From the IMG/VR virus record IMGVR_UViG_2579778842_000003: a DNA stretch of 64,000 bases; one strand, written 5' to 3'. Under the pieces are notes generated by a model. That model was not told where the DNA came from, did not search any database, and was given only the letters and a program-made list of their open reading frames with translations. The number at the start of each line of letters is the position of its first letter. Within the stretch, counting starts at the first letter, position 1. The position numbers and the translations under genes were made by a program. This DNA comes from a virus. Lineage: Duplodnaviria > Heunggongvirae > Uroviricota > Caudoviricetes. Shown here piece after piece: positions 727-64,000 of this stretch.

Positions 727-3457
<2,731 letters not shown>

Positions 3458-3490
3458 TTAATTAGAATAATTCGCATCGTGTTTGAACGG

Positions 3491-3523: not shown

Positions 3524-6500
3524 ATGAACAAGCTATCTATTGGGGTGTTTCGCTGTTCAAGTGTCAGCGAAATATTGAAATACATTAGGGCAATAACATC
3601 TCACCGAGCGCCGATTAAATACGGCGTGGAAAAGGTGGAAGGCAAAAGCTATGACCGACTGCGCCGGGAGGCGAATCAGAAGGCGATAGATTTGCTTAAT
3701 TCACTGGTGGACAGCGCGACACTGACAGATGAACAGCGCCAGATCCTGGCTGGGTACACCGGTGAAGGCGGCATTGGCGGGTCCGTCTCCGAATATTACA
3801 CACCAAAGCCGATCGCTGAAGGTGTCTGGGAGATCATGAAGCTCTACGGCGCGGACGTAGGTAACACTCTGGAACCATCGGCGGGCACCGGCGTTTTTAA
3901 TGAGACAAAACCGGTTGGTACGGTGATGACTGCGACTGAGATCAGCAGTGTTTCCGGTCGTATAAACCAGTTGTTACACCCGGAAGACAGCGTACAGATT
4001 TCCCCGTTCGAACAGCTGGCTATAAGCACACCTAACGATTCATTCGACCATGTTGTGGGTAACGTTCCGTTCGGCGGTCGTGATAACACACGCAACATCG
4101 ATAAGCCTTACGCAGAAGAAACGGACATGGGTTCTTACTTCATGCTCCGCATGCTGGACAAGATAAAGCCAGGCGGATTCATGTGCGTGATTGTGCCGCC
4201 GTCCATTGTTTCAGGTTCAAACATGAAGCGGTTACGCCTGCGCCTATCACGGAAAGCAGAATTTCTTGGTGCCCACCGCTTGCCTACCGGTACTTTTGAC
4301 GCAAACGGGACCAGTACGGTCGTAGATGTGGTGCTGATGCGCAAACATCCGGCAGAGATGGCTGAGAAAATCCCCCTGGTGGATGAAAGCACTCTTGAAT
4401 CAGCAAATGTGCTTTGGCCAACGTTTATTTCTGGCAAGTGGTTTGAAAAGGATGGCCGCCGGTTTGTTCATGGCACCCAAGAAAAGGGCTTCCGGGGGCG
4501 TATTGAGGTTCGTGCCGACGGTCAGATTGATAACCAGGCTCTTAAAGCGAAGCTGATTCATCGTTTCGAAAGCCGTATCGACTGGTCTTTGCTCGATATG
4601 GCTGAACCGTCACCGACCGCAGACGTTGTTGGTGAAGGGGAAATGCGCCTGATTAATGGCGTATGGCAAAAATATGCTGGTGGTCGCTGGATTGAAGCTG
4701 ATGCCGGGAAGGAACTTAAGATCGATGCTGCCAGTTATGGCGCGGATAGCTGGGAGGCTCTTCAGCGTAACCTGACTACAACAGAAGGCCGTCTCGGTAT
4801 GACATTTACCCAGATGGCAAATGTCCGCGATAAGTACACCACATCAATCAGCGACGATATGGTGCAGCTGGTGGACTGGATTAACAGCCAGCCTGAAAAA
4901 TACCGTGAACGCTTGTATCGCGGGGCGATGATTGGCCGGATGTTAATTGAATATCAGGATATGAAGGCCGCCGGGCATAGTGCTGAACAAATCGAACAGC
5001 AGCGCCTTTCTCTGGTATCCCGTTTGCAGGCAGAGATTGACCGTTTTGGTAACCCCGGTCGCGGTCCGATAGCGAAATTATCGGGGAGCGGTGCGCGCGC
5101 CTGGTTTGCTTTCCGTGGTGCAATTAAGCTGGATGGCACTATTTCTGACGAGCTGACAGGAAAACTGGTTACGCATGATTCCAGCGCCAGTTATGACTCC
5201 ACCAGCTATCAGGACACCCTGCGTTATCTCTACAGTGATCTCACTCGCGATCCAATCCAGCTCGATGATTTCCGCCTTGCGTTTACCGGCGAACTGCCAG
5301 CCAGTGATGATGAGTTGCTTAATTTATTGGCCAGCACCCCTGGCATTGCGGTTTCACCGTATGGCGGGATTGTTCCGTTCGCCCGCGCCACCAGCGGCGA
5401 CATTAACGAGATAGTGGCTCCAAAACAGGAATTCCTCGCCACGCTCCCCGACGGTCCAGTAAAGAACAACGTCCTTAATCAGCTGGCAGCGATCGAAGAG
5501 AAGCGCATCAAGACGCCAGCAGAGAATATCCGCTTTAAGCTCAATAGCCGTTGGTTCGACCGTTCCGTCATTCTGGAGTTTTTGCAGGAAAACGGCTATC
5601 CGGATCTGCGCTATGTGCAGTCAGTGCAGCTGGAAGGCGACGAAATGGTTTCTGACACCTATCACGGTGGTGATGGCCTGTTCGTCGGGCACCGATACGG
5701 TGTCGTCCAGCGCAAGGATAAAGAAACAGGCGAGATCCGCTACGAGTGGGACCGTAAATCAGGAGAAAACGCGACCGGGTTCCCGGCACAGCTGGAAAAG
5801 TATCTCAATGGTGCGCGTATCGGTGGCAAAGATAGCGCGACGGCGAACGGCTATCGTGAGCAGATGGCACTGCTTGAGGACCAGTTCAATAAGTGGATCA
5901 AGACGCACGATCGCTACGATGAGCTGGTTGCCAAATACAACGATGTGTTCAATAGCAATATCCCGTATGAACACTCTGGCGATCCGCTTGGGTTGAAGGG
6001 ATTAAGCGGTAAGCGCCAGCCATTTGATTACCAGAATAGCGAGGTGCGCCGACTGTCCGAAGATGGGCGCGGCATCCTGGGCTTCGGTACCGGGCTGGGT
6101 AAAACCACGACCGCGCTGGCGCTTGAGACGTTCAACTATGAGAACGGTCGCTCCACCCGTACTGCTTATGTAGTGCCTAAATCAGTGCTGGAAAACTGGT
6201 ATTACGAAGCAAAAGAATTCCTGAGTGAAGAGGCATTCAGTAACTACCTGTTCGTCGGTCTTGATGTGCTGATGGATGGCGATCAGATTCGCCAGGTGCC
6301 GGTGCTCGATGAGAACGGTAAACCTGTTCTTGGTACTGATGGCACTCCAGTTATGCGCGATGCTCTTAAGCTGGCAGATGAAGCCACTATCACAGCGCGG
6401 ATGAACGCGATCCCGCACTCAAACTACCGTGCAGTCGTGTTTACCAAAGAACAATACGCCCGCATTCCGCTACGTGATGACACCGTAGATGAGCATGCAC

Positions 6501-9500
6501 AAGACATGCTTTATGACTTCGTTGCCGCCGGGCGCGTAGCCAGCGCAATGGATTCCGACTCCCATCGTAAAGAGGCGGCGCGTCGCTGGGTATTGTCGGA
6601 GTATTCAGATACCGGTACCGAAAAAGCAGAGAAGTATCCGTACTTTGAGGATATGGGCTTCGATAGTGTGATCGCCGACGAAGGTCACAACTACCGCAAT
6701 AGCTATAAAAATGGTCGCGAAGCGTCACAACTGGCCTATCTGCCCACCAGCGCGGTGGCGCAATCGGCGCGGGATATGGCAATCAAAAACGCGTACCTGA
6801 TGAAAAAGAATGGCGGGCGCGGGCCGGTTCTCCTGACTGCAACGCCAGTCGTTAACACCCCGATCGATGCATACAACATGCTTTCTCATGTTCTGCCGAA
6901 GGAATACTGGCAGAAGATGGGGATCTACGGTCCTGATGACTTCGTTAAATTCTTCGGCAAGACCAGGCTGGAAACGGTACAGAAAATCAGCGGTGAAGTT
7001 GAAGAAAAAATGGCGCTGGTGGGCTTTGAAAACCTTGATGCGCTGCGCGGTATATTCCATCGCTGGGTAACGCTTAAAACGGCGGAAGACGTTAAGGATA
7101 CCGTGGAGATCCCGGAACTGGACGAACACCAGCAGGATGCACCACTTACTGAAGAACAACTGGCGGCGTATGAAGAATTGCGTCAGCAGGCGGAAGCGGC
7201 GGCCAAAGCCAACAATGGTGTAACGACCTCGGTCAATGAAGACGGCGTGATTGAGCACGAGAAAGCCCGTCCGATCTTCTCAATAATCAGGGATATGGAC
7301 CGCGTATGTACTGACATGGACCTGTACTATCGCCGGATCACCTATCGTTTCCTGCCGGAGTACGCCGATGCGGTGCAGCAGCTGGCGGACAGTTTGCCTA
7401 AACAAGCCACCAGCGAAGACGACGACAGTGATGATTCAATCACGCAGCAATCGCAATACTCCCTGATAGATAAGGGCGAGTTTATTCAGTTGCAGGTTCC
7501 GGAAGCGTTCGAGCAGGAAGTGAATAAGCGCCTGGCCAGGTTTGGCATTGACGAACAGACCGTAACTCACCCCGTTACGCCGAAATACGCGAAGCTGATC
7601 GCCACGCTGAAGGAGTTTTTCCCGGAAGGGAAGCAAATCATCTTCACCGACGAAAAAACGCAGCACCAGAAGCTCAAGCGCATTATCTGCAATGCTCTTA
7701 ACCTTGAACCTTCAAAGGTAGGGATCCTGAATGCTCAGACTGTTGCCGAGGCAGGTAAAACCGGTAAGAAACTGAAAGCGGTTAAACCGCCGAAAGAGTT
7801 ACCGGATGAACCAACAGATGCACAGATAGCGAAATACAACGAGCAAATGGCTCTGTATGACGCCTATATCGCGCAGCAAAATGAAATGTCGTTGGGCGGT
7901 CTGGAAAAGATTGCAGCCGACTTCCAGGAGGGCCGGACTCCGATCATCATCTGCAACAAAAAGGCAGAGGTGGGTATCAACCTGCATCGAGGAACGACTG
8001 ACATCCATCATCTGACGTTGCCATGGACACCAGCCAGTATCGCACAGCGTAACGGTCGCGGTGCTCGAGTTGGCTCCAACCGTGCAAGCGTTCGCGTTCA
8101 CTACTACTGCGGCAAGGGGTCTTTCGATGAATACCGATTGAAGACGCTGAAGCGTAAAGCAGGCTGGATCTCCGATATCCTCCGTTCAGATAAGTCGGAA
8201 ATGGAGAACGCCGACGCCAATGACATGATCGAAATGCAGATGTATACCGCGAAGGATGACGGCGAACGTCTGGCAATGATGCAGGTTCAAATGGATAAGG
8301 CGAAAGCTGCGAAACGCGCTCGCCAGAAAGAACAGGCTACTATCGACCTTCAGAATTACATCAAGGCGCAGCACGCAGCTGGCGAGGATGTGGAGGTACT
8401 TACCGCTGAATTAGAGCGAAGCAAAGCGGAACTTGAAAAGACCACCGCCGAGGTAGCTAAATTCAAACAGGCGGTAATGGCCAAAGCAGCTGATAACGCA
8501 GACTGGAAAGCCCGCTGGGGTAGCGTCCATCACACAGACCGTACGTTGTTAGCACAGTATCGCGCGTCGTTGAAAAGCGCCATTCAGCGCAAGGCTAATA
8601 TCTCTCAGGCCATCTCCCGCTATGAGAAATTATTGAACCGTACTCAGAAGGCCGCGACGGATATCAAACGCCTGCGCCCGCTGGTGGAGGATGCAATAAA
8701 TAAAGGCATTCTGGATGTTGATCCTGATCTGGTTAACCATGCGAATGAGTTCCTTGTTATCGGCGATCGCTCATGGCGTGTAGGCCAATACTACGATTGT
8801 GCCGGTGATATCGTTCGCATTAAGTCGCTGGACTTCGACAGCCAGCGCGCAGACGTGGAGATCATCTTTACCTTAAGAGGCACCAAATCGGGTAACTGGG
8901 ATGTGAAGACGCTGGATAAACAGGTGGATGTAACTCCCGATGAAGATGCTGTTATGCAGAAAATCAGTGGTGGCGTCTCCATCGCCGGGATTAACGACAT
9001 CATTTCCTGTGACGATTTCTACCGTTTCCAGCAGCGCGGCATGATCAAAATCACTGACTCGTACGGCGTTCAGACTACAGAGTCAGGCTATAGCATTGAT
9101 TTTGTTGGTACCTATACGGACCCACTGAAGCATGCGGTTTACCCGGATCGCCGTGACGGCGCGCTGAAGTCGTCAATTGCAAAATGGGTGCTTGGTATGA
9201 TGTCGGAAGGGAATAACCGCCAGATCCGTTCGGCAGAAACATTCCTGGTTGAATTGTTTGGCTCCAATTATGGCGATGTAATCGCGTCATACGGAGATAC
9301 GCTATCCCCTGAAGCAATTCAGGAGAAAATAGCGGATGCGATCGCCAGAATGCCGGAAAAAACAAGCCAGGGGTCTACTCGTAACGGGGATTCTGAACTT
9401 GAAGTCACCAATGCCATTTTCGGTACCAATGAGTTCCGGGCGTCAGATTATGAGATCACCACAGCACAGTTTGGCACCATTGGCATTTACAGCAATAAAG

Positions 9501-10291
9501 ACGAGATCAAGCAGGCAATGGACGCAGCAAGTGCGCGCATTGCAGCAGAACGGAAAGCCAATCTGAATCATGCAGTCGCCGCGCTGACTCAATCGTGGGT
9601 AACAGCAATCAGGGAGGCCGCCACCACAGGAAAAATCACACCGGCAATTGCGGATGTCGTAAACGACGGCTCTAAATTTATGGATGCCTATAAAATGGAT
9701 GCGGTGCAGTTGCCATCAGTCTATGGCCAACTCAGCTATCGCATGACCTACAACCTGGTATCAATGTTTACTGACCTTGCCATCCTTGGGCTGGTGGACC
9801 TTAACGAGGTTACGCCGGAATTACTCAGCATGCGCAAGAATCATGTTGAGATATTGCAGAGAATTAACACGGTTCTTGCCGGGCGCACCGATGAAGAGAA
9901 ACAGGCCGACGCTGATCGGATAAACCTGGCCCTAGGCAACATCACGGAGGAAGAAATTGCCGCCAGAAACGAGAAACAAGAAGAGTTATCATCAATACAG
10001 GGTGATGCCACCAGCATAGCTCAGTCTCTTGGGCTGAATTATCGCGTATCCACCGCCGACCTGAAGATGATGTACGCACCAAAATTCGCCGCTGGCGAGG
10101 TATTTGGGCTTCAGGAAGCCTCCGGCATGAAAGGGGTTCTTTTCCGTGCGAAAGACGCAATCAAGGCGAAATTCGGCGCTCGCTGGTTGCCAGCGAAGGC
10201 GAAGAACAGCGATTTCCCGGGTAACTGGTGGATTATCGAGACAAAACACAACGTGGCGGACGTTCTGGCCGTCATCCAACAATACGCATAA
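3524..10291 (+). CDS. darB: DarB antirestriction protein (N6-adenine methyltransferase-like domain + DExH helicase domain)
   Basis: Single 2255-aa ORF; AdoMet motif I (LEPSAGTGVF), motif IV-like (GNVPFG), Walker A (GFGTGLGKTT), DExH box (VIADEGHNY). Size and position match P1 DarB. Confidence 0.88.
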   Translation: MNKLSIGVFRCSSVSEILKYIRAITSHRAPIKYGVEKVEGKSYDRLRREANQKAIDLLNSLVDSATLTDEQRQILAGYTGEGGIGGSVSEYYTPKPIAEGVWEIMKLYGADVGNTLEPSAGTGVFNETKPVGTVMTATEISSVSGRINQLLHPEDSVQISPFEQLAISTPNDSFDHVVGNVPFGGRDNTRNIDKPYAEETDMGSYFMLRMLDKIKPGGFMCVIVPPSIVSGSNMKRLRLRLSRKAEFLGAHRLPTGTFDANGTSTVVDVVLMRKHPAEMAEKIPLVDESTLESANVLWPTFISGKWFEKDGRRFVHGTQEKGFRGRIEVRADGQIDNQALKAKLIHRFESRIDWSLLDMAEPSPTADVVGEGEMRLINGVWQKYAGGRWIEADAGKELKIDAASYGADSWEALQRNLTTTEGRLGMTFTQMANVRDKYTTSISDDMVQLVDWINSQPEKYRERLYRGAMIGRMLIEYQDMKAAGHSAEQIEQQRLSLVSRLQAEIDRFGNPGRGPIAKLSGSGARAWFAFRGAIKLDGTISDELTGKLVTHDSSASYDSTSYQDTLRYLYSDLTRDPIQLDDFRLAFTGELPASDDELLNLLASTPGIAVSPYGGIVPFARATSGDINEIVAPKQEFLATLPDGPVKNNVLNQLAAIEEKRIKTPAENIRFKLNSRWFDRSVILEFLQENGYPDLRYVQSVQLEGDEMVSDTYHGGDGLFVGHRYGVVQRKDKETGEIRYEWDRKSGENATGFPAQLEKYLNGARIGGKDSATANGYREQMALLEDQFNKWIKTHDRYDELVAKYNDVFNSNIPYEHSGDPLGLKGLSGKRQPFDYQNSEVRRLSEDGRGILGFGTGLGKTTTALALETFNYENGRSTRTAYVVPKSVLENWYYEAKEFLSEEAFSNYLFVGLDVLMDGDQIRQVPVLDENGKPVLGTDGTPVMRDALKLADEATITARMNAIPHSNYRAVVFTKEQYARIPLRDDTVDEHAQDMLYDFVAAGRVASAMDSDSHRKEAARRWVLSEYSDTGTEKAEKYPYFEDMGFDSVIADEGHNYRNSYKNGREASQLAYLPTSAVAQSARDMAIKNAYLMKKNGGRGPVLLTATPVVNTPIDAYNMLSHVLPKEYWQKMGIYGPDDFVKFFGKTRLETVQKISGEVEEKMALVGFENLDALRGIFHRWVTLKTAEDVKDTVEIPELDEHQQDAPLTEEQLAAYEELRQQAEAAAKANNGVTTSVNEDGVIEHEKARPIFSIIRDMDRVCTDMDLYYRRITYRFLPEYADAVQQLADSLPKQATSEDDDSDDSITQQSQYSLIDKGEFIQLQVPEAFEQEVNKRLARFGIDEQTVTHPVTPKYAKLIATLKEFFPEGKQIIFTDEKTQHQKLKRIICNALNLEPSKVGILNAQTVAEAGKTGKKLKAVKPPKELPDEPTDAQIAKYNEQMALYDAYIAQQNEMSLGGLEKIAADFQEGRTPIIICNKKAEVGINLHRGTTDIHHLTLPWTPASIAQRNGRGARVGSNRASVRVHYYCGKGSFDEYRLKTLKRKAGWISDILRSDKSEMENADANDMIEMQMYTAKDDGERLAMMQVQMDKAKAAKRARQKEQATIDLQNYIKAQHAAGEDVEVLTAELERSKAELEKTTAEVAKFKQAVMAKAADNADWKARWGSVHHTDRTLLAQYRASLKSAIQRKANISQAISRYEKLLNRTQKAATDIKRLRPLVEDAINKGILDVDPDLVNHANEFLVIGDRSWRVGQYYDCAGDIVRIKSLDFDSQRADVEIIFTLRGTKSGNWDVKTLDKQVDVTPDEDAVMQKISGGVSIAGINDIISCDDFYRFQQRGMIKITDSYGVQTTESGYSIDFVGTYTDPLKHAVYPDRRDGALKSSIAKWVLGMMSEGNNRQIRSAETFLVELFGSNYGDVIASYGDTLSPEAIQEKIADAIARMPEKTSQGSTRNGDSELEVTNAIFGTNEFRASDYEITTAQFGTIGIYSNKDEIKQAMDAASARIAAERKANLNHAVAALTQSWVTAIREAATTGKITPAIADVVNDGSKFMDAYKMDAVQLPSVYGQLSYRMTYNLVSMFTDLAILGLVDLNEVTPELLSMRKNHVEILQRINTVLAGRTDEEKQADADRINLALGNITEEEIAARNEKQEELSSIQGDATSIAQSLGLNYRVSTADLKMMYAPKFAAGEVFGLQEASGMKGVLFRAKDAIKAKFGARWLPAKAKNSDFPGNWWIIETKHNVADVLAVIQQYA

Positions 10292-10324
10292 CAGGAGCGC
10301 CCGGTTCGCCGGGCGTCGCATAAT

Positions 10325-10765
10325 ATGGCCACATTATCTGATACAATAAAACCGAATAAAACATATCTTGAGGCGGTGCTGCGTACGGCGTTGTTAGGAA
10401 AGACAGAAGACGAATACGTTGATTTCTTCCTGTCAGGGCTACGCGGGCGATTACTGAAAAATCCCCGCCTGTACCGCAGTTATGGCCCATACTGGCCGGA
10501 AATTAAAAAATTATTACTGGAGCGCGGTTATGGTAATTTCGGTCGTCTCGTTGACCGTGACGTTCGCAAAATTTACCGTTATGACCGCCCGGCGCTGACA
10601 CTCATAGCCGCGACGCTCTACAGCCAGGAGCGTTTTGATAATGGTCAGATATACTCAGCCTGGCATTTACTGCCAGTGCCTGAAGAAGTTGACGACCAGG
10701 ACTATGAGTTTGAGTCTTACGATTTGGAAGTTGAAGCCTTGGCACAGGCTGGAGAGAAAACTTGA
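10325..10765 (+). CDS. hypothetical protein (P1 Ulx-like by position and size)
   Basis: 146-aa ORF directly downstream of darB, same strand; P1-like codon usage. Confidence 0.5.
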   Translation: MATLSDTIKPNKTYLEAVLRTALLGKTEDEYVDFFLSGLRGRLLKNPRLYRSYGPYWPEIKKLLLERGYGNFGRLVDRDVRKIYRYDRPALTLIAATLYSQERFDNGQIYSAWHLLPVPEEVDDQDYEFESYDLEVEALAQAGEKT

Positions 10766-11010
10766 AAAAGCGATACTACACAGTAAAGCATGGGACGCTA
10801 CGAGCATTACAAGAGTTTGCTGACAAGCATAACGTTGAGGTGCGCAGGGAAGGGGGAAGTAAAGCTCTGCGTATGTACCGTCCGGATGGGAAATGGCGTA
10901 CGGTCGTCGATTTCAAAACTAACAGCGTTCCCCAGGGCGTCCGTGACCGGGCATTCGAAGAATGGGAGCAGATCATCATAGATAACGCATTGCTCCTGAA
11001 TGCTGATTAA
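10762..11010 (+). CDS. small protein (P1 Lxc/Bof-like by position and size)
   Basis: 82-aa ORF overlapping the previous stop (ATGA-type coupling); followed by a strong terminator hairpin. Confidence 0.45.
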   Translation: MKKRYYTVKHGTLRALQEFADKHNVEVRREGGSKALRMYRPDGKWRTVVDFKTNSVPQGVRDRAFEEWEQIIIDNALLLNAD

Positions 11011-11045
11011 TTTATCGGGCAGTTTTATCTGCCCGATAAATTTTT
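11011..11045. terminator. strong hairpin terminator between convergent lxc-like and SIR2-like genes
   Basis: Perfect 12-bp inverted repeat TTTATCGGGCAG / CTGCCCGATAAA with a 6-nt loop, followed by TTTTT. Confidence 0.55.
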
Positions 11046-11056
11046 ATCGACCACAA

Positions 11057-12364
11057 TTACACTATATTCTTAACTATAAGGTTGGCGTCCTTCAAGGTGC
11101 CTAATGTTTCAATGTGGTTTTTTATCATTAATCTATTTGAGGCAATTATTGCAGGCCATCGTGTTTCCCAAGCTCTGTAAGCATACCAAGAAACTCCCCA
11201 ATTCCTTTCTTTACTCATATGACCCATCGAGTATTCAACTGCGTCTAAATATGTTTTTTCATACTTAGTATTGCTAACCTCTATGATGCTTCCAAAATAT
11301 ATAAGCCATTTTGCCAACTGTTCATATTGCTCCCACGCTCCGTTATTCCTTGTTAACTTTCTCTTTTTTTCTATTATCCTTTCGAAAAGAGAAACGACTT
11401 TATCATCATTCCAATCTAAACCTTCCGATATAATTGATGATATAATTTGATAAAATGAATCCTCTAATTTAAGATATTCATTTTTATAAGTATAAGCCCC
11501 CGAAACAACTTTTCTGATATTTTCGCGCGCTCTTTCAATGATGTCTTTAATGAGAGACATCTTATAACTTAATCGACTAAAGAAACAATCTATTTCTGTA
11601 TTGTCAATTACCCTTATACCAAAGCAATAGAAGTAATAATCCTTCATATCTTGACTTACTTTGTTGCGAGATATCAAAAAGATATTAGAGCACAGGGCAT
11701 TATTTTTCGAAAATTTTTTATAGTCATTTATAATTGCTTTAAGATTTGTGTCGCTTAAAGAATACCCTAATATCGCAACTGTATTTTCATGCAGCATCGT
11801 ACTAAGTTTTCGTGAAAAATAAGTATCGGAATTTATAAATCTGAAGTAATCATCTGAAGTGACAATCATATTTTTTGGCGAATCAATAGAGCCATGAACA
11901 TGATATATTTTCACCTTGGATGGATACTTTGGAATTGGCAGGCCGGGCGTGATAGACTGTACACTTTCATCTCCAACCAAGCATTCAGCCAACTTGTCAT
12001 AATTTGTTGTAATGACACGGAATGAGTTTTTTTGGAAAAAATCTTTTATATTTGATATGTCTTCTCCAAGTTGAATTGGAGATATGATGTCAACAATTTC
12101 ATCATAAATCGACTTACCCTCAATATTGAGCTTCAAAGATAGTATTTGTGCGGCTTCTTCAAGACTCAGTGCTGGTGGTTTATCATCAGGGAATAACGTG
12201 TCTTCCAACTTTTTGGCATTGTGAACTTTGCTGCAAACTTTTTTTAATAGTTCCTTCCACGTTGGAGCTTCACCGTTCGAGACTGCCTTTGAAAAGCCAG
12301 TCCCGGTAAATAGACAAAGCCTGCTTGTAGCGGCAGCGTATGCTAACTCAACATATTCGCTCAT
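11057..12364 (-). CDS. SIR2-family (SIR2_2-like, putative NAD+ hydrolase) protein with uncharacterised C-terminal domain; candidate anti-phage defence gene
   Basis: 435-aa ORF, visibly AT-rich versus flanks. Motifs: LFTGTGFSKAV (GxGxS), VITTNYDKL (TNYD), IYHVHGS...IVTSDDYF. GGAG SD upstream of the ATG. Occupies the slot where P1 carries res/mod. Confidence 0.8.
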   Translation of the reverse strand: MSEYVELAYAAATSRLCLFTGTGFSKAVSNGEAPTWKELLKKVCSKVHNAKKLEDTLFPDDKPPALSLEEAAQILSLKLNIEGKSIYDEIVDIISPIQLGEDISNIKDFFQKNSFRVITTNYDKLAECLVGDESVQSITPGLPIPKYPSKVKIYHVHGSIDSPKNMIVTSDDYFRFINSDTYFSRKLSTMLHENTVAILGYSLSDTNLKAIINDYKKFSKNNALCSNIFLISRNKVSQDMKDYYFYCFGIRVIDNTEIDCFFSRLSYKMSLIKDIIERARENIRKVVSGAYTYKNEYLKLEDSFYQIISSIISEGLDWNDDKVVSLFERIIEKKRKLTRNNGAWEQYEQLAKWLIYFGSIIEVSNTKYEKTYLDAVEYSMGHMSKERNWGVSWYAYRAWETRWPAIIASNRLMIKNHIETLGTLKDANLIVKNIV

Positions 12365-12420
12365 TACTTACTCCATTTACTTATAGTTCTATGGAGAAGT
12401 ATACCCTAATGCATTGACGT

Positions 12421-13089
12421 TTATAGATAATTTCCTTTTCCAGTTAACTCCCCTTTAGGCACCCGTTTTTGTGCCAGTGTTTGGGTTCCGCGAATTATGT
12501 TAATCAGAGGGCTTAGTAACGATGATTCCTGGCGGGCATCAACTTCTCCTGCCATTGCCCTAATGTAGTCGGCGCTTGCAACGTTGTTATATTCCGTTGC
12601 GAAGCAGCATAACAACGTCAGAACGTGCTCTGTCGTTATTTCGCTCCAGTTGATGTTGAAAAATTCATCGCCTTTTTTGTCATGTTCGGAATCGAAGATG
12701 CTTTGGTGAAGGATGTATTTGCCGGATTCCTTGCGCGGTAACTTGATCGCTTTCTGGCGTTCCAATTCCTTGTAAATCTGCATCGCTTCAATCAGTACCG
12801 GTCTGCCGTTCATGAAGGGATCACGCAACCTTACACGCTGGCCAACTCGACCGGTAATAAAGCTGTTTTCCTCTTCCACCAGCACGATAAAACCCTTTTC
12901 CTCTTTTTCTCGCAATTCGCGCAGCAGCTGGAGTTCCATATCGCGGCGGCGTTCAGGGTAGCTGGTCCGCTCAGCCATTATCAGCTCATTGTTGATCCAT
13001 GCGGCAGTCATTGACGCCGGTTTGCCGACGCTCATCGAAACAACGCATATTTTCTTATCCATAGCGCCCCTACAAAAAAGAAAAGCCAC
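12421..13089 (-). CDS. hypothetical protein (P1 Mat-like by position)
   Basis: 222-aa ORF between ref and the SIR2-like gene; alternative start at MDKK (13062). Positional assignment only. Confidence 0.5.
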   Translation of the reverse strand: MAFLFCRGAMDKKICVVSMSVGKPASMTAAWINNELIMAERTSYPERRRDMELQLLRELREKEEKGFIVLVEEENSFITGRVGQRVRLRDPFMNGRPVLIEAMQIYKELERQKAIKLPRKESGKYILHQSIFDSEHDKKGDEFFNINWSEITTEHVLTLLCCFATEYNNVASADYIRAMAGEVDARQESSLLSPLINIIRGTQTLAQKRVPKGELTGKGNYL

Positions 13090-13250
13090 CAGCGGCGGCT
13101 TAGCAATACAACTGAAGGTAGCGCCCGGTACTCAGACTGTGCCGTCCATGGAATATTTGAAAAGGGATCCATCCGTACCGGGCGTGTGATGATTCTGACT
13201 GAAGTCACTTGTCAGTTGTCAATCATTTATCATTAAAAATAATATATTTA

Positions 13251-13811
13251 TTAGTGCATAATGTTTGTCATCTCATAGGCGTCAGCCAGTAACTCCATCT
13301 CTGACTTGTTCAGCAGGGTGAATTCTTTCTTGCCTCCAACCACACCATCGGCATGAACAGGGACCAGCCAGGGGTATTTTGCTCTTACTTCAGTCGGTGC
13401 TGCATGCTGGTGGTGCCATCTACAAAGTGGCAATTGCTTTTTATGACAACCCGGCGCAGTACGACCGGCGATATGGTGCAGAGACACCTCATTAGATATT
13501 ACTCCATGCATATAGCAGGCAATGCAGGGGAGAGTGCCAAGAGCATTGGCGATGCGCCGTTCCTCCGCCGTTGGTGTTCTCCCCTTCAAGCCACGAGATT
13601 TTATTTTTACCGCGCTTTTCCGCGTTTTGCTGGCTGGTGGGCGCTCTTTCTGTTTAGCGATACGGCGGTCGATAGTATCCCGCATTTTCTGATATTGAGA
13701 TTCTCGCCAGACCGGATCAGCCAACTTCTCCCGTTGCCGAGCGATCGCTCGTTCTCTGGCTGCCTTCTGCCACTTGCGGCACTGTTCAATTTTTTGTTCG
13801 ATTGTTTTCAT
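13251..13811 (-). CDS. ref: Ref recombination enhancement function, HNH-type endonuclease
   Basis: 186 aa; basic N-terminus, Cys/His-rich HNH-like core (CIACYMHG...HHIAG...CHKKQLPLCRWHH); C1 operator-like site just upstream. Confidence 0.85.
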   Translation of the reverse strand: MKTIEQKIEQCRKWQKAARERAIARQREKLADPVWRESQYQKMRDTIDRRIAKQKERPPASKTRKSAVKIKSRGLKGRTPTAEERRIANALGTLPCIACYMHGVISNEVSLHHIAGRTAPGCHKKQLPLCRWHHQHAAPTEVRAKYPWLVPVHADGVVGGKKEFTLLNKSEMELLADAYEMTNIMH

Positions 13812-14057: not shown

Positions 14058-14369
14058 TTATTTCATCATGGAAGCTGTTAACGCTTTGGACCTTGCTGAA
14101 CTGATTGAGAGGGCTTTGTCAACGTGCCCCAAAAATTCGCCAAACTCAGACATCACTTTAGCAAAACCGCGCCGTGCTTCTTCCTCGGTGGCATTCATCA
14201 CGAAATGTTCAGCACCACGCATACTTTTGACAGGGAACGCAACGGATATTGAATCAATATCAGGCATTCTATCGCTCAGCTTTACAGTGACAATGACGGC
14301 TGGCGACTGAATATTAGTGCTTACAGACAGCACTACATATTTTCCGTCGATGTTGAAATCCTTTCTCAT
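14058..14369 (-). CDS. hypothetical small protein downstream of cre (cra-region ORF; strand uncertain)
   Basis: 103-aa ORF preceded by a C1 operator-like site; an overlapping 103-aa ORF exists on the + strand, so strand choice is tentative. Confidence 0.3.
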   Translation of the reverse strand: MRKDFNIDGKYVVLSVSTNIQSPAVIVTVKLSDRMPDIDSISVAFPVKSMRGAEHFVMNATEEEARRGFAKVMSEFGEFLGHVDKALSISSARSKALTASMMK

Positions 14370-14419: not shown

Positions 14420-15451
14420 CTAATCGCCATCTTCCAGCAGGCGCACCATTGCCCCTGTTTCACTATCCAGGTTACGGATATAGTTCATGACAATATTTAC
14501 GTTGGTCCAGCCACCAGCTTGCATGATCTCCGGTATTGAAACTCCGGCACGGGCCATATCTCGCGCGGCTCCGACACGGGCACTGTGTCCAGACCAGGCC
14601 AGGTACCTCTGGCCAGAGTCATCCTTAGCCCCGTAAATCAATCGGTGAGTTGCTTCAAAAATCCCTTCCAGGGCGCGAGTTGATAGCTGGCTGGTGGGTG
14701 ATGGCGAGGCAACACCATTTTTTCTGACCCGGCAAAACAAGTAGTTATTCGGATCATCAGCCACACCAGAGACAGAAATCCATCGCTCGACCAGTTTAGT
14801 TACCCCCAGGCTAAGTGCCTTCTCTACACCCGCGGTACTAACCAGCGTTTTCGTTCTGCCAATATGGATTAACATTCTCCCACCGTCTGTACGTGAGATA
14901 TCTTTAACCCTGATCCTGGCAATTTCGGCTATACGTAACAGGGTGTTATAAGCGATCCCCAGAAATGCCAGATTACGTATGTCCTGGCAGCGATCGCTAT
15001 TTTCCATGAGTGAACGAACCTGGTCGAAATCAGTGCGTTCGAACGCCAATGCCTGTTTTGCACGTTCACCGGCATCAACGTTTTCTTTTCGAATCCGCCG
15101 CATGACCAGTGAAACAGCATTGCTGTCACTTGGTCGTGGCAGCCCGGACCGACGATGAAGCATGTTTAGCTGGCCCAAATGTTGCTGGATAGTTTTTACT
15201 GCCAGACCGCGCGCCTGAAGATATAGAAGATAATCGCGAACATCTTCAGGTTTTGCGGGAAACCATTTCCGGTTATTCAACTTGCACCATGCCGCCCATG
15301 ACCGGCAAACGGACAGAAGCATTTTCCAGGTATGCTCAGAAAACGCCTGGCGATCCCTGAACATGTCCATCAGGTTCTTGCGAACCTCATCACTCGTTGC
15401 ATCGACCGGCAATGCAGGCAAATTTTGGTGTACGGTCAGTAAATTGGACAT
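14420..15451 (-). CDS. cre: Cre tyrosine site-specific recombinase
   Basis: 343 aa, MSNLLTVHQNLPALPVDATSDEVRKNLMDMFRDRQAF... through ...MVRLLEDGD; near-identical to P1 Cre as recalled; loxP lies about 420 bp upstream. Confidence 0.97.
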   Translation of the reverse strand: MSNLLTVHQNLPALPVDATSDEVRKNLMDMFRDRQAFSEHTWKMLLSVCRSWAAWCKLNNRKWFPAKPEDVRDYLLYLQARGLAVKTIQQHLGQLNMLHRRSGLPRPSDSNAVSLVMRRIRKENVDAGERAKQALAFERTDFDQVRSLMENSDRCQDIRNLAFLGIAYNTLLRIAEIARIRVKDISRTDGGRMLIHIGRTKTLVSTAGVEKALSLGVTKLVERWISVSGVADDPNNYLFCRVRKNGVASPSPTSQLSTRALEGIFEATHRLIYGAKDDSGQRYLAWSGHSARVGAARDMARAGVSIPEIMQAGGWTNVNIVMNYIRNLDSETGAMVRLLEDGD

Positions 15452-62953: not shown

Positions 62954-63250
62954 GTGTTATCCCTTGTACTTTTAATCTTCTTCGGGGGAGGTTTACCTCC
63001 CCTTGATACAACCGCATTCCACCGCCTAGCGAATAGAGTAAAATAACATCTTGTAAATACTCTGGTATGAAGTGAGTGTAAACTAACAGTTACCTATTAA
63101 TAAATACTCCTATACTTTTCTACCTTAAATATTTAGTATGCACATGGTTAAATTTATGTAGCGTCAAAGTTTGTGAAGGCAAGATGTCCGTTAATCTTTG
63201 TCGAAGCATATATGGTTCTAGGAAGTATTGGCTTATTTAAGAGGAATGTC

Positions 63251-64000
63251 ATGTTACGTATCAATGATATGAGCAATATTATTGTAGGTATTTACAGCAA
63301 AAAAAATGAAGAAAAATCATTTGAGTATATGTACTCTTATCTGACAAGGAAAACAGCTTATTTAACACGTGAGTTTATTCGTGATGGTAATCAGGATAAA
63401 GAATTATTAAAAAATACCTATATAGAAGCATTGTCTTGGCTTTTTGCAATCTGTGATAAACTTGAAATACAACCACAGGAAGCATTTTATAAAAAATTTC
63501 CTAGTTGCTGTCCTTATTGCTTAGGGGCGCCTTGTTCCTGTTCTCAAACACACAGAAAGCCAGAGAAAATAAGAAGCGCAAAAGGAATTAAAGATGAGCT
63601 TTTCAATAAATATAACGCTATTAAACCTATGCAATTTCCGCCTTATGCGCCACGAATGATTAATGACATCTATCCGTCGAATAGAACCATTTGGTCTACT
63701 TTTGGTGGGTTTTATCATTCATCCAGGTTATTCGAAGAGTTGGGTGAGTTGCAAGAGGCTTATGCTAAATCAATTGAAGATAAAAATTACAACAAAGAAA
63801 ATCTTCATGAAGAGTGTGCTGATATATATGCTTGGTTGTTTTCTTTATGGGGGATTATTTTTAAAGATGATGATCTTGGCGAGGCGTTTGAAAGTTATTA
63901 TCTAAATGGTTGTCCTGTCTGCAATAAAAGAGAATGTGTTTGTGTCAGTTATTCAGGGAAGATTAGTAAAACTGATGAGAAAAGAGCATCATTGGAAAAA
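63251..64000 (+). CDS. AT-rich ORF running off the window end: MazG-like NTP pyrophosphohydrolase-type helices with CxxC/CxC clusters (3'-truncated)
   Basis: Open from ATG 63251 to base 64000 with no stop (absent from the ORF track); LFEELGELQEAYAK and EECADIYAWLFSL match MazG-type EExxE / EExxD helices; Cys clusters CCPYCLGAPCSCS and CPVCNKRECVCV. Confidence 0.5.
   Translation, partial: MLRINDMSNIIVGIYSKKNEEKSFEYMYSYLTRKTAYLTREFIRDGNQDKELLKNTYIEALSWLFAICDKLEIQPQEAFYKKFPSCCPYCLGAPCSCSQTHRKPEKIRSAKGIKDELFNKYNAIKPMQFPPYAPRMINDIYPSNRTIWSTFGGFYHSSRLFEELGELQEAYAKSIEDKNYNKENLHEECADIYAWLFSLWGIIFKDDDLGEAFESYYLNGCPVCNKRECVCVSYSGKISKTDEKRASLEK

Follow-up and report, generated by a model that had tools for sequence, protein, structure and literature searches.

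The DNA analyzed here, referred to as the window, is a stretch of 64,000 nucleotides from the IMG/VR virus record IMGVR_UViG_2579778842_000003. Judged by its sequence, it belongs to a P1-like IncY phage-plasmid whose orientation is reversed relative to the P1 coordinates. Between lxc, coding for a modulator of C1 (10762-11010, plus strand), and mat, a gene of maturation control (12421-13062, or to 13089, minus strand), the window carries a cargo cassette of 1410 bp with a GC content of 0.35 (11011-12420). The cassette is composed of a hairpin, a single gene of the SIR2 family and a leader, and it occupies the position of res and mod in P1. The SIR2 gene (11057-12364, minus strand) codes for a protein of 435 amino acids (aa), followed by the stop codon. 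It is convergent with lxc, and mat lies upstream of it on the same strand. On the left, the lxc-mat slot is bounded by the stop codon of lxc, and on the right by that of mat. The 82-aa open reading frame (ORF) of lxc matches phrog_2160 over its full length, and the mat ORF matches phrog_1837.

The limits of the cassette were determined by pairwise BLAST comparisons. The backbone shared with P1, RCS47 and SJ46 ends with the lxc stop codon, at position 11010, and homology to P1 and SJ46 picks up again at the mat stop codon (12421-12425), which defines the replaced segment as 11011-12420. In the P1 reference (NC_005856), the genes are arranged in the order mat (2716-3468), res (3544-6456), mod, which is interrupted by IS5, and lxc (9750-9998). 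P7 has the same arrangement, with the EcoP7 res and mod genes between mat and lxc. An earlier note on this DNA had proposed that the slot lies between P1-like flanks and that the EcoP1I res and mod genes carried there by P1 have been replaced. Both proposals were borne out, as the flanking genes are 95-98% identical to those of P1 and homology ends exactly at the two stop codons.

The cassette also differs from the backbone in base composition, with a GC content of 0.35 compared with 0.48. The SIR2 coding sequence, at 0.348, has the lowest GC content of all 1308-bp tiles of the window, the other tiles having 0.484 +/- 0.030 (z = -4.6), in agreement with the note's description of a single AT-rich ORF of 435 aa. 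We conclude that the cassette is of foreign base composition and was probably acquired horizontally. No megablast match to it was present among the 50,697 phage records of INPHARED, and the best tblastn match to the SIR2 protein in the phage collection was 27% identical. The records that carry the gene have been deposited as plasmids and in IMG/VR, not as sequenced phages. Neither an antitoxin-like partner nor a second ORF was found in the cassette.

The SIR2 protein and the surroundings of its gene

The protein is composed of an N-terminal SIR2 (Rossmann) domain (residues 1-257; 11594-12364, minus strand), with a GTG loop at residues 21-23 that binds nicotinamide adenine dinucleotide (NAD), and of an all-helical C-terminal domain (residues 258-435; 11060-11593, minus strand), for which we propose a role as a sensor or regulatory module. 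Residues 117-252 match positions 3-140 of the 141 positions of Pfam SIR2_2 (PF13289), with a score of 84.3 bits for a cutoff of 24.5 (E = 1e-23). The four motifs that had led to the assignment of the protein to SIR2_2 are present, LFTGTGFSKAV starting at residue 18, VITTNYDKL at 117, IYHVHGS at 153 and IVTSDDYF at 167. The protein furthermore matches phrog_7567, a family without annotated function, over its full length (residues 1-434 on 1-434 of 434; E = 5.5e-247). It does not resemble a classical sirtuin, with no match to the Pfam Sir2 family (PF02146) and no CxxC zinc module.

An AlphaFold2 model computed with 42 homologues, with a mean predicted local distance difference test (pLDDT) value of 84 and a predicted template modeling (pTM) score of 0.68, places the SIR2 domain at approximately residues 1-257 and the helical domain at residues 258-435. 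The closest folds are those of immune SIR2 enzymes that hydrolyze NAD+ (NADases), namely, KomC, ThsA, Avs5 and FAM118B. Sequence and profile searches of the PDB returned DSR2, ThsA, KomC and FAM118B, with no match beyond residue 270. The candidate catalytic residues, N121 (12002-12004, minus strand) and H157 (11894-11896, minus strand), align with N133 and H171 of DSR2, the latter being the residue mutated in the "DSR2 H171A" PDB entries. Together with G21, T22 and G23, they are invariant in the 42 homologues, in which approximately 120 columns are invariant overall. The C-terminal domain is exclusive to the family, as all 75 representative clusters that contain it have the SIR2 architecture or are fragments. 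This rules out that it is a module shuffled onto other effectors, none of which occurs among these clusters.

At the lxc end of the cassette, a perfect hairpin with a stem of 14 bp and a loop of 6 nucleotides (nt) (11009-11042) is followed on the plus strand by UUUUUAU. Its predicted folding energy is -23.1/-23.6 kcal/mol (z -6.7/-6.0), and 0 of 200 shuffled sequences folded as well. As the U run is found 3' of the stem on the plus strand only, the hairpin represents the lxc terminator and would be, at most, a less efficient terminator of the SIR2 gene; it probably also stops convergent transcription. The earlier note had thus correctly recognized a perfect terminator hairpin, the stem of which is 14 rather than 12 bp long. 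BLAST homology to Ro157c2YLVW, another P1-like element, extended to position 11041, but inspection revealed a different hairpin with patchy similarity, and a common hairpin was therefore rejected. At the other end, the leader (12365-12420, minus strand) spans the 56 nt from the mat stop codon to the ATG of the SIR2 gene, with a GGAG Shine-Dalgarno sequence 7 nt before the ATG.

Beyond the slot, the P1-like genes are darB (3524-10291), ulx (10325-10765) and lxc on the plus strand and mat, ref (13251-13811), c8 (14058-14369) and cre (14420-15451) on the minus strand. Positions 10300-13200 are 100% identical to plasmid unnamed3 of Escherichia coli W25K (NZ_CP091040, IncY, 97.7 kb), in which the mat product is annotated as a protein of 213 aa. 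A run of four G residues just 5' of the mat start codon (ATG, 13062) in the window (13067-13070, minus strand) corresponds to five in the P1 reference. This difference splits the 250-aa Mat of P1 into a short upstream ORF and a main ORF of 213 aa, and the split annotation is also found in RCS47, SJ46 and most P1-like plasmids. It could be due to an indel specific to the reference, to phase variation or to frameshifting. Elsewhere in the window, a second strongly AT-rich stretch (63001-64000; GC content, 0.34) contains no ORF of more than 80 aa, and further patches of low GC content (0.39-0.43) in the P1 backbone, between 23001 and 27000, harbor only small ORFs of 90-224 aa.

Slot occupants and relatives of the SIR2 gene

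The same slot holds different cargo in other P1-like elements, and a 2024 study listed the type III restriction-modification (R-M) region among their variable regions (PMC11165635). In SJ46, the slot contains a gene for a 373-aa RelA/SpoT protein (record L013, 3047-4168) identical over all 373 residues to PDB entry 7ztb, i.e., CapRelSJ46, which experimentally protects E. coli from phages (PMC9712102). This gene is oriented like the SIR2 gene; mat is followed by a hairpin, and the upstream region measures 112 bp. JL22 carries a gene for a 316-aa PIN_12 protein with a partial match to PDC-S34 and MH422554 one for a 346-aa DUF2971 protein that matches PDC-S31, both genes resembling PADLOC candidates. 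A gene for an AraC-type helix-turn-helix (HTH) protein is accompanied by an EAL-domain gene, coding for a putative cyclic di-GMP phosphodiesterase, in Ro157c2YLVW (record L014, 3050-4624), and the slot of RCS47 is empty, with 39 bp that include a GC-rich hairpin. Every occupied state of the slot has a GC content between 0.33 and 0.39, and each cargo cassette has its own, distinct hairpin directly after the lxc stop codon.

The prevalence of these states was determined in PLSDB, using lxc, cargo and mat of each state as a query and counting a record if one place covered at least 80% of the query. Two clades of the SIR2 family were distinguished, clade A being that of the window. Among the approximately 702-703 plasmids with the lxc/mat backbone, the AraC and EAL pair was found in 127 records, the DUF2971 gene in 86, an empty or very short slot in 71, type III R-M in 66, SIR2 clade B in 64, SIR2 clade A with both flanks present in 56, the PIN gene in 22 and the CapRel gene in 21; about 250 records were left without assignment to one of these states. 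The SIR2 family thus occupies at least 120 of the ~703 P1-like slots of PLSDB (17%, or about 1 in 6). Of 5426 complete E. coli genomes, 134 contain clade A, with 136 of its 138 places on plasmids, and its gene shows 99-100% conservation across dozens of plasmids of diverse hosts and continents. Well over 100 database records list the gene under the name "SIR2 family protein," and it is therefore neither rare nor unique to the window plasmid.

Clade A comprises at least four sub-alleles, those of the window and of records L023, L024 and L025, which are 84-88% mutually identical. A codon-level comparison of the window with two of them, L023 and L024, revealed that differences amount to 0-2% in residues 1-114, 8-11% in residues 115-256 and 22-30% in the C-terminal domain. 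The ratio of nonsynonymous to synonymous substitution rates (dN/dS) amounts to 0.07-0.08 for the SIR2 domain and 0.13-0.18 for the C-terminal domain, and the gene is thus under purifying selection and functional. Synonymous divergence (dS) is unequal between the domains, arguing for a recombinational mosaic. Across genera, the mean pairwise identity is 79% in the catalytic core and 57% in the C-terminal domain.

The gene of the clade B protein (434 aa; cluster P0008) matches that of clade A in position, orientation and distance from mat (56 nt). The proteins of the two clades are only 59% identical, which makes them as distant as homologues from other genera, and the clades are long-branch sisters in a neighbor-joining tree without support values. 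Some clade B copies in the slot are truncated, with 274 and 338 aa in the P1-like IMG/VR contigs L049 (3509-4809) and L053 (4001-5303), which suggests occasional inactivation. The leader is identical at 55 of 56 positions between clades A and B (record L030, 3945-4000); the coding sequences share approximately 67% of their nucleotides, and the downstream hairpins differ. It is not present in the other cargo states nor upstream of the homologues outside P1-like elements. Two explanations fit this identity, a regulatory element under purifying selection or homogenization by recombination with the adjacent, near-identical backbone. A leader hairpin sequestering the Shine-Dalgarno sequence is part of the minimum free energy fold, but it was rejected as a specific structure because it was no better than those of shuffled sequences (z -1.1, -0.3 and +1.4 for three variants).

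Full-length homologues of ~434 aa that are 52-62% identical to the window protein occur across Gamma-, Beta- and Alphaproteobacteria, and approximately 30 IMG/VR viral contigs contain full-length members of the family. No conserved partner gene was found across seven other genomic contexts, and in this respect the gene is autonomous. The homologue is the last gene of a prophage, adjoining the integrase gene, in E. coli. It adjoins an HD/HD_assoc (dGTPase-like) gene in Pantoea, is close to a GmrSD_N gene in Vibrio cholerae and to PDDEXK_4 and AAA_23/SMC_N genes in Paracidovorax, and is part of an island with HNH, HSDR_N, DUF4145 and DUF87 genes in Halomonas. It is isolated in Rhizobium and in Pseudoalteromonas; a 207-aa gene upstream in the latter, considered as a partner, proved to be lineage specific. 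In Halomonas daqingensis (record L020, 7700-10667), the region downstream of the homologue contains a 401-aa gene and a 591-aa DUF87 (HerA-like) gene. Three other genes lie between the homologue and the DUF87 gene, which forms a pair with the 401-aa gene; this pair may constitute a separate defense system of the HerA type.

Possible roles of the cassette

We propose that the cassette is probably a horizontally acquired, single-gene abortive-infection module with NADase activity, similar to the defense-associated sirtuins (DSRs), that forms a swappable cargo of the lxc-mat slot. This reading is supported by the swap within the slot, the foreign GC content, the autonomy of the gene, the defense-type surroundings of several homologues, the validated CapRelSJ46 in the same socket, the low dN/dS values and the prevalence of the gene. 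In a lysogen, the SIR2 enzyme would be held inactive. Upon infection by another phage, the C-terminal domain would sense a phage-derived cue, and the SIR2 domains would then either be set free or form an active oligomer, in the manner of the nearest structural relatives. The hydrolysis of NAD+, for which N121 and H157 are the candidate residues, would cause metabolism to collapse and abort the infection, thereby protecting sister cells that harbor the plasmid.

A further-reaching proposal, which we put forward tentatively, is that the 435-aa protein is an unnamed, minimal and autonomous sensor-effector system, the shortest design of the DSR type so far, which has been missed by the programs that detect defense systems, and that the lxc-mat slot serves as a plug-in socket. 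In that case, the leader shared by both clades would imply a regulatory element, specific to the slot, that makes expression of the immune gene dependent on the P1 prophage state, e.g., through a hairpin masking the ribosome-binding site or through C1-controlled read-through from mat. SIR2 effectors and prophage defense hotspots are already well established. The new elements are the compact architecture with a domain exclusive to the family, its prevalence in P1-like plasmids, and the presence in one socket of CapRelSJ46, EcoP1I and two deep SIR2 clades, the latter under a near-invariant leader.

A number of observations speak against a defense function. The most common cargo of the slot in PLSDB, the AraC-HTH and EAL pair, has no known defense role, and location alone is therefore no proof of defense; the slot is a general cargo hotspot rather than a pure defense hotspot. 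The idea of a defense-cassette swap at a hotspot thus held for the swap and for the alternative cargo, which includes CapRelSJ46, and had to be relaxed for the nature of the hotspot. A 2025 DefenseFinder survey of P1-like phage-plasmids reported RM III, dGTPase, PrrC and CapRel, without the SIR2 gene. In PADLOC-DB 2.0.0, the best match was PDC-S25, a single-gene SIR2 candidate family (E = 1e-26), but it covers only positions 127-289 of the 517 positions of the profile, and no PADLOC family matched the protein over its full length. In the literature and the PDB, we found no paper or solved structure on the SIR2 family of the window, nor did the literature yield a paper linking P1-like elements with SIR2. 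Rapidly evolving sensors of phage proteins classically have a different signature from that of the C-terminal domain, which is fairly conserved, with a dN/dS of 0.13-0.18.

Expression of the gene raises the most serious objection. A consensus sigma-70 scan revealed no convincing promoter upstream of the SIR2 gene, and a relaxed scan found only TTAACT-16-TATAAA, with 9 of 12 matches, overlapping the mat stop codon. No terminator separates mat from the SIR2 gene, in contrast to SJ46, in which mat is followed by a hairpin. Taken together, the lack of a convincing promoter and of a terminator on the mat side indicates that transcription of the SIR2 gene may come partly from the mat promoters, which are annotated in P1 as C1-controlled and late. 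Such read-through would fit a role in the lytic phase, which makes this the weakest point of the defense interpretation.

Other functions were weighed against that of an abortive-infection module. Found almost exclusively on plasmids and prophages, as illustrated by its plasmid-borne places in E. coli and by the IMG/VR prophage contigs, the gene might serve as a weapon or stabilizer in the competition between mobile elements, either as an NAD+-depleting toxin that penalizes plasmid loss or as a toxin triggered by incoming plasmids or other prophages, which might also exclude rival P1-like elements. R-M, the historical occupant of the slot, also acts as an addiction module (PMC10879196), and near-identical backbones carry at least three alleles and two deep clades. 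We nevertheless find such a function unlikely, given that the cassette encodes neither an antitoxin-like partner nor any second protein, that the chromosomal homologues are found in ordinary loci, where addiction makes little sense, and that all of its closest relatives in sequence and fold are immune enzymes triggered by phages. The RefSeq/PGAP product name, "SIR2 family NAD-dependent protein deacylase," raises the question of whether the protein is a true NAD-dependent protein deacylase, or an ADP-ribosyltransferase, that tunes the physiology of the lysogen or P1 development. Located directly 3' of mat without a terminator, the gene could be coexpressed with a late or maturation function, and the AraC and EAL cargo resembles genes of lysogenic conversion or regulation. 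For a protein devoid of the signatures of classical sirtuins, we regard this as quite unlikely.

The proximity of the slot to the anti-restriction genes darB and ulx points to yet another role, that of a counterdefense gene that would extend the Dar/Ulx anti-restriction cluster and aid the entry of P1, e.g., by consuming immune signals derived from NAD+ or their precursor. P1-like elements often carry anti-defense genes, such as Tad2 (10.1101/2025.09.12.675607). Yet lxc separates ulx from the slot, the validated slot occupants are defense rather than anti-defense systems, and homologues are found in chromosomal settings that resemble defense islands. No anti-defense protein is known to have the SIR2 fold, nor was one described in the literature consulted, and we consider this role improbable. 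That the gene is a decaying or neutral passenger without current function is disfavored and highly improbable. The truncation of some clade B copies and the occurrence of empty slots would be compatible with it, but the 435-aa ORF is intact, with the low dN/dS values given above, the catalytic residues belong to the invariant columns of the 42 homologues, and the gene is nearly identical in dozens of plasmids.

If the abortive-infection function is confirmed, the protein would add to the SIR2 immune proteins one that is very small, consists of a single chain and is amenable to genetics, and the way in which a domain of 178 residues gates an NADase should be easier to work out than in DSRs of ~1000 residues. 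It would also mean that P1-like phage-plasmids exchange immune cargo, i.e., EcoP1I, CapRel, SIR2, PIN and DUF2971 genes, at one socket, and the slot variants would represent near-isogenic natural backbones for comparing defense systems. Resistance genes are frequent on P1-like plasmids, which are common in E. coli and Salmonella of clinical and livestock origin. As the gene is not listed in the DefenseFinder survey and has only a partial match in PADLOC, studies of phage therapy or transduction that use such surveys may underestimate the immunity of P1-type lysogens if this function is confirmed.

Comparison with known SIR2 systems and slot occupants

The best PDB sequence match of the window protein is DSR2 (E = 4e-10). 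Like DSR1 and DSR2, it is a single polypeptide without a partner gene, with an N-terminal SIR2_2 domain that contains the same Asn/His pair and a helical C-terminal region. In DSR2, this region forms an alpha-solenoid and binds the tail tube protein of the phage (PMC11850899). Unlike DSR1 and DSR2, which have ~1000-1260 aa, the window protein has 435 aa, the similarity is confined to the SIR2 domain, and no relation could be detected between its C-terminal domain of 178 aa and the MID/CTD of DSR2. It is not a member of either family, with scores of 26 bits for NF041818 and 23 bits for NF041819, compared with cutoffs of 1400.

ThsA of Thoeris has a C-terminal SLOG/STALD domain that binds glycocyclic ADP-ribose (gcADPR), and it requires the TIR protein ThsB; the window protein has neither. 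The ThsA profiles cover only its SIR2 part (107-227 of 478), the C-terminal domain consists of helices and gave no SLOG-like match, and no TIR/ThsB gene was found in the cassette or beside the seven homologues, which excludes membership in Thoeris. KomC of Kongming is a bare SIR2 protein of 264-278 aa that acts together with KomA, KomB and a nucleotide signal (Zeng et al. 2025, cited in PMC13069673). In contrast, the window protein has an additional C-terminal domain and no partner genes. A domain-centric defense screen of 2026 excluded single-gene systems (PMC13069673).

SIR2-HerA (Nezha), also found in V. cholerae, needs a HerA-type ATPase gene (PMC11212891), and PD-T7-2 is a two-gene system of SIR2 and ATPase (PMC9519451). 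No HerA/DUF87 gene is present in the cassette, and among the other contexts only that of Halomonas has one, at a distance of ~2.6 kb, so that the protein was not assigned to SIR2-HerA. In Avs5, a SIR2-STAND protein, the SIR2 domain is fused to a STAND NTPase, which the window protein does not contain. Short prokaryotic Argonaute (pAgo) SPARSA, Lamassu-SIR2, Avs5 and Kongming were rejected as well, as no pAgo, LmuB SMC, STAND or KomA/KomB was found in the protein or its neighbors. The PADLOC matches to LmuA, SIR2 and Dsr are limited to the SIR2 region. Similarly, the SIR2 core alone aligns with phrog_2695 (120-282 of 531), as is the case for PDC-S25, and this family represents a longer protein with a different architecture.

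As for the other slot occupants, CapRelSJ46, a toxin of the toxSAS family, and EcoP1I, a type III R-M system, are proteins unrelated to the SIR2 protein, with different chemistries. Both have been validated experimentally, unlike the SIR2 gene. With CapRelSJ46, a fused sensor-effector protein of abortive infection (PMC9712102), the SIR2 cassette nevertheless shares the lxc-mat socket, the orientation and the organization as a single AT-rich gene.

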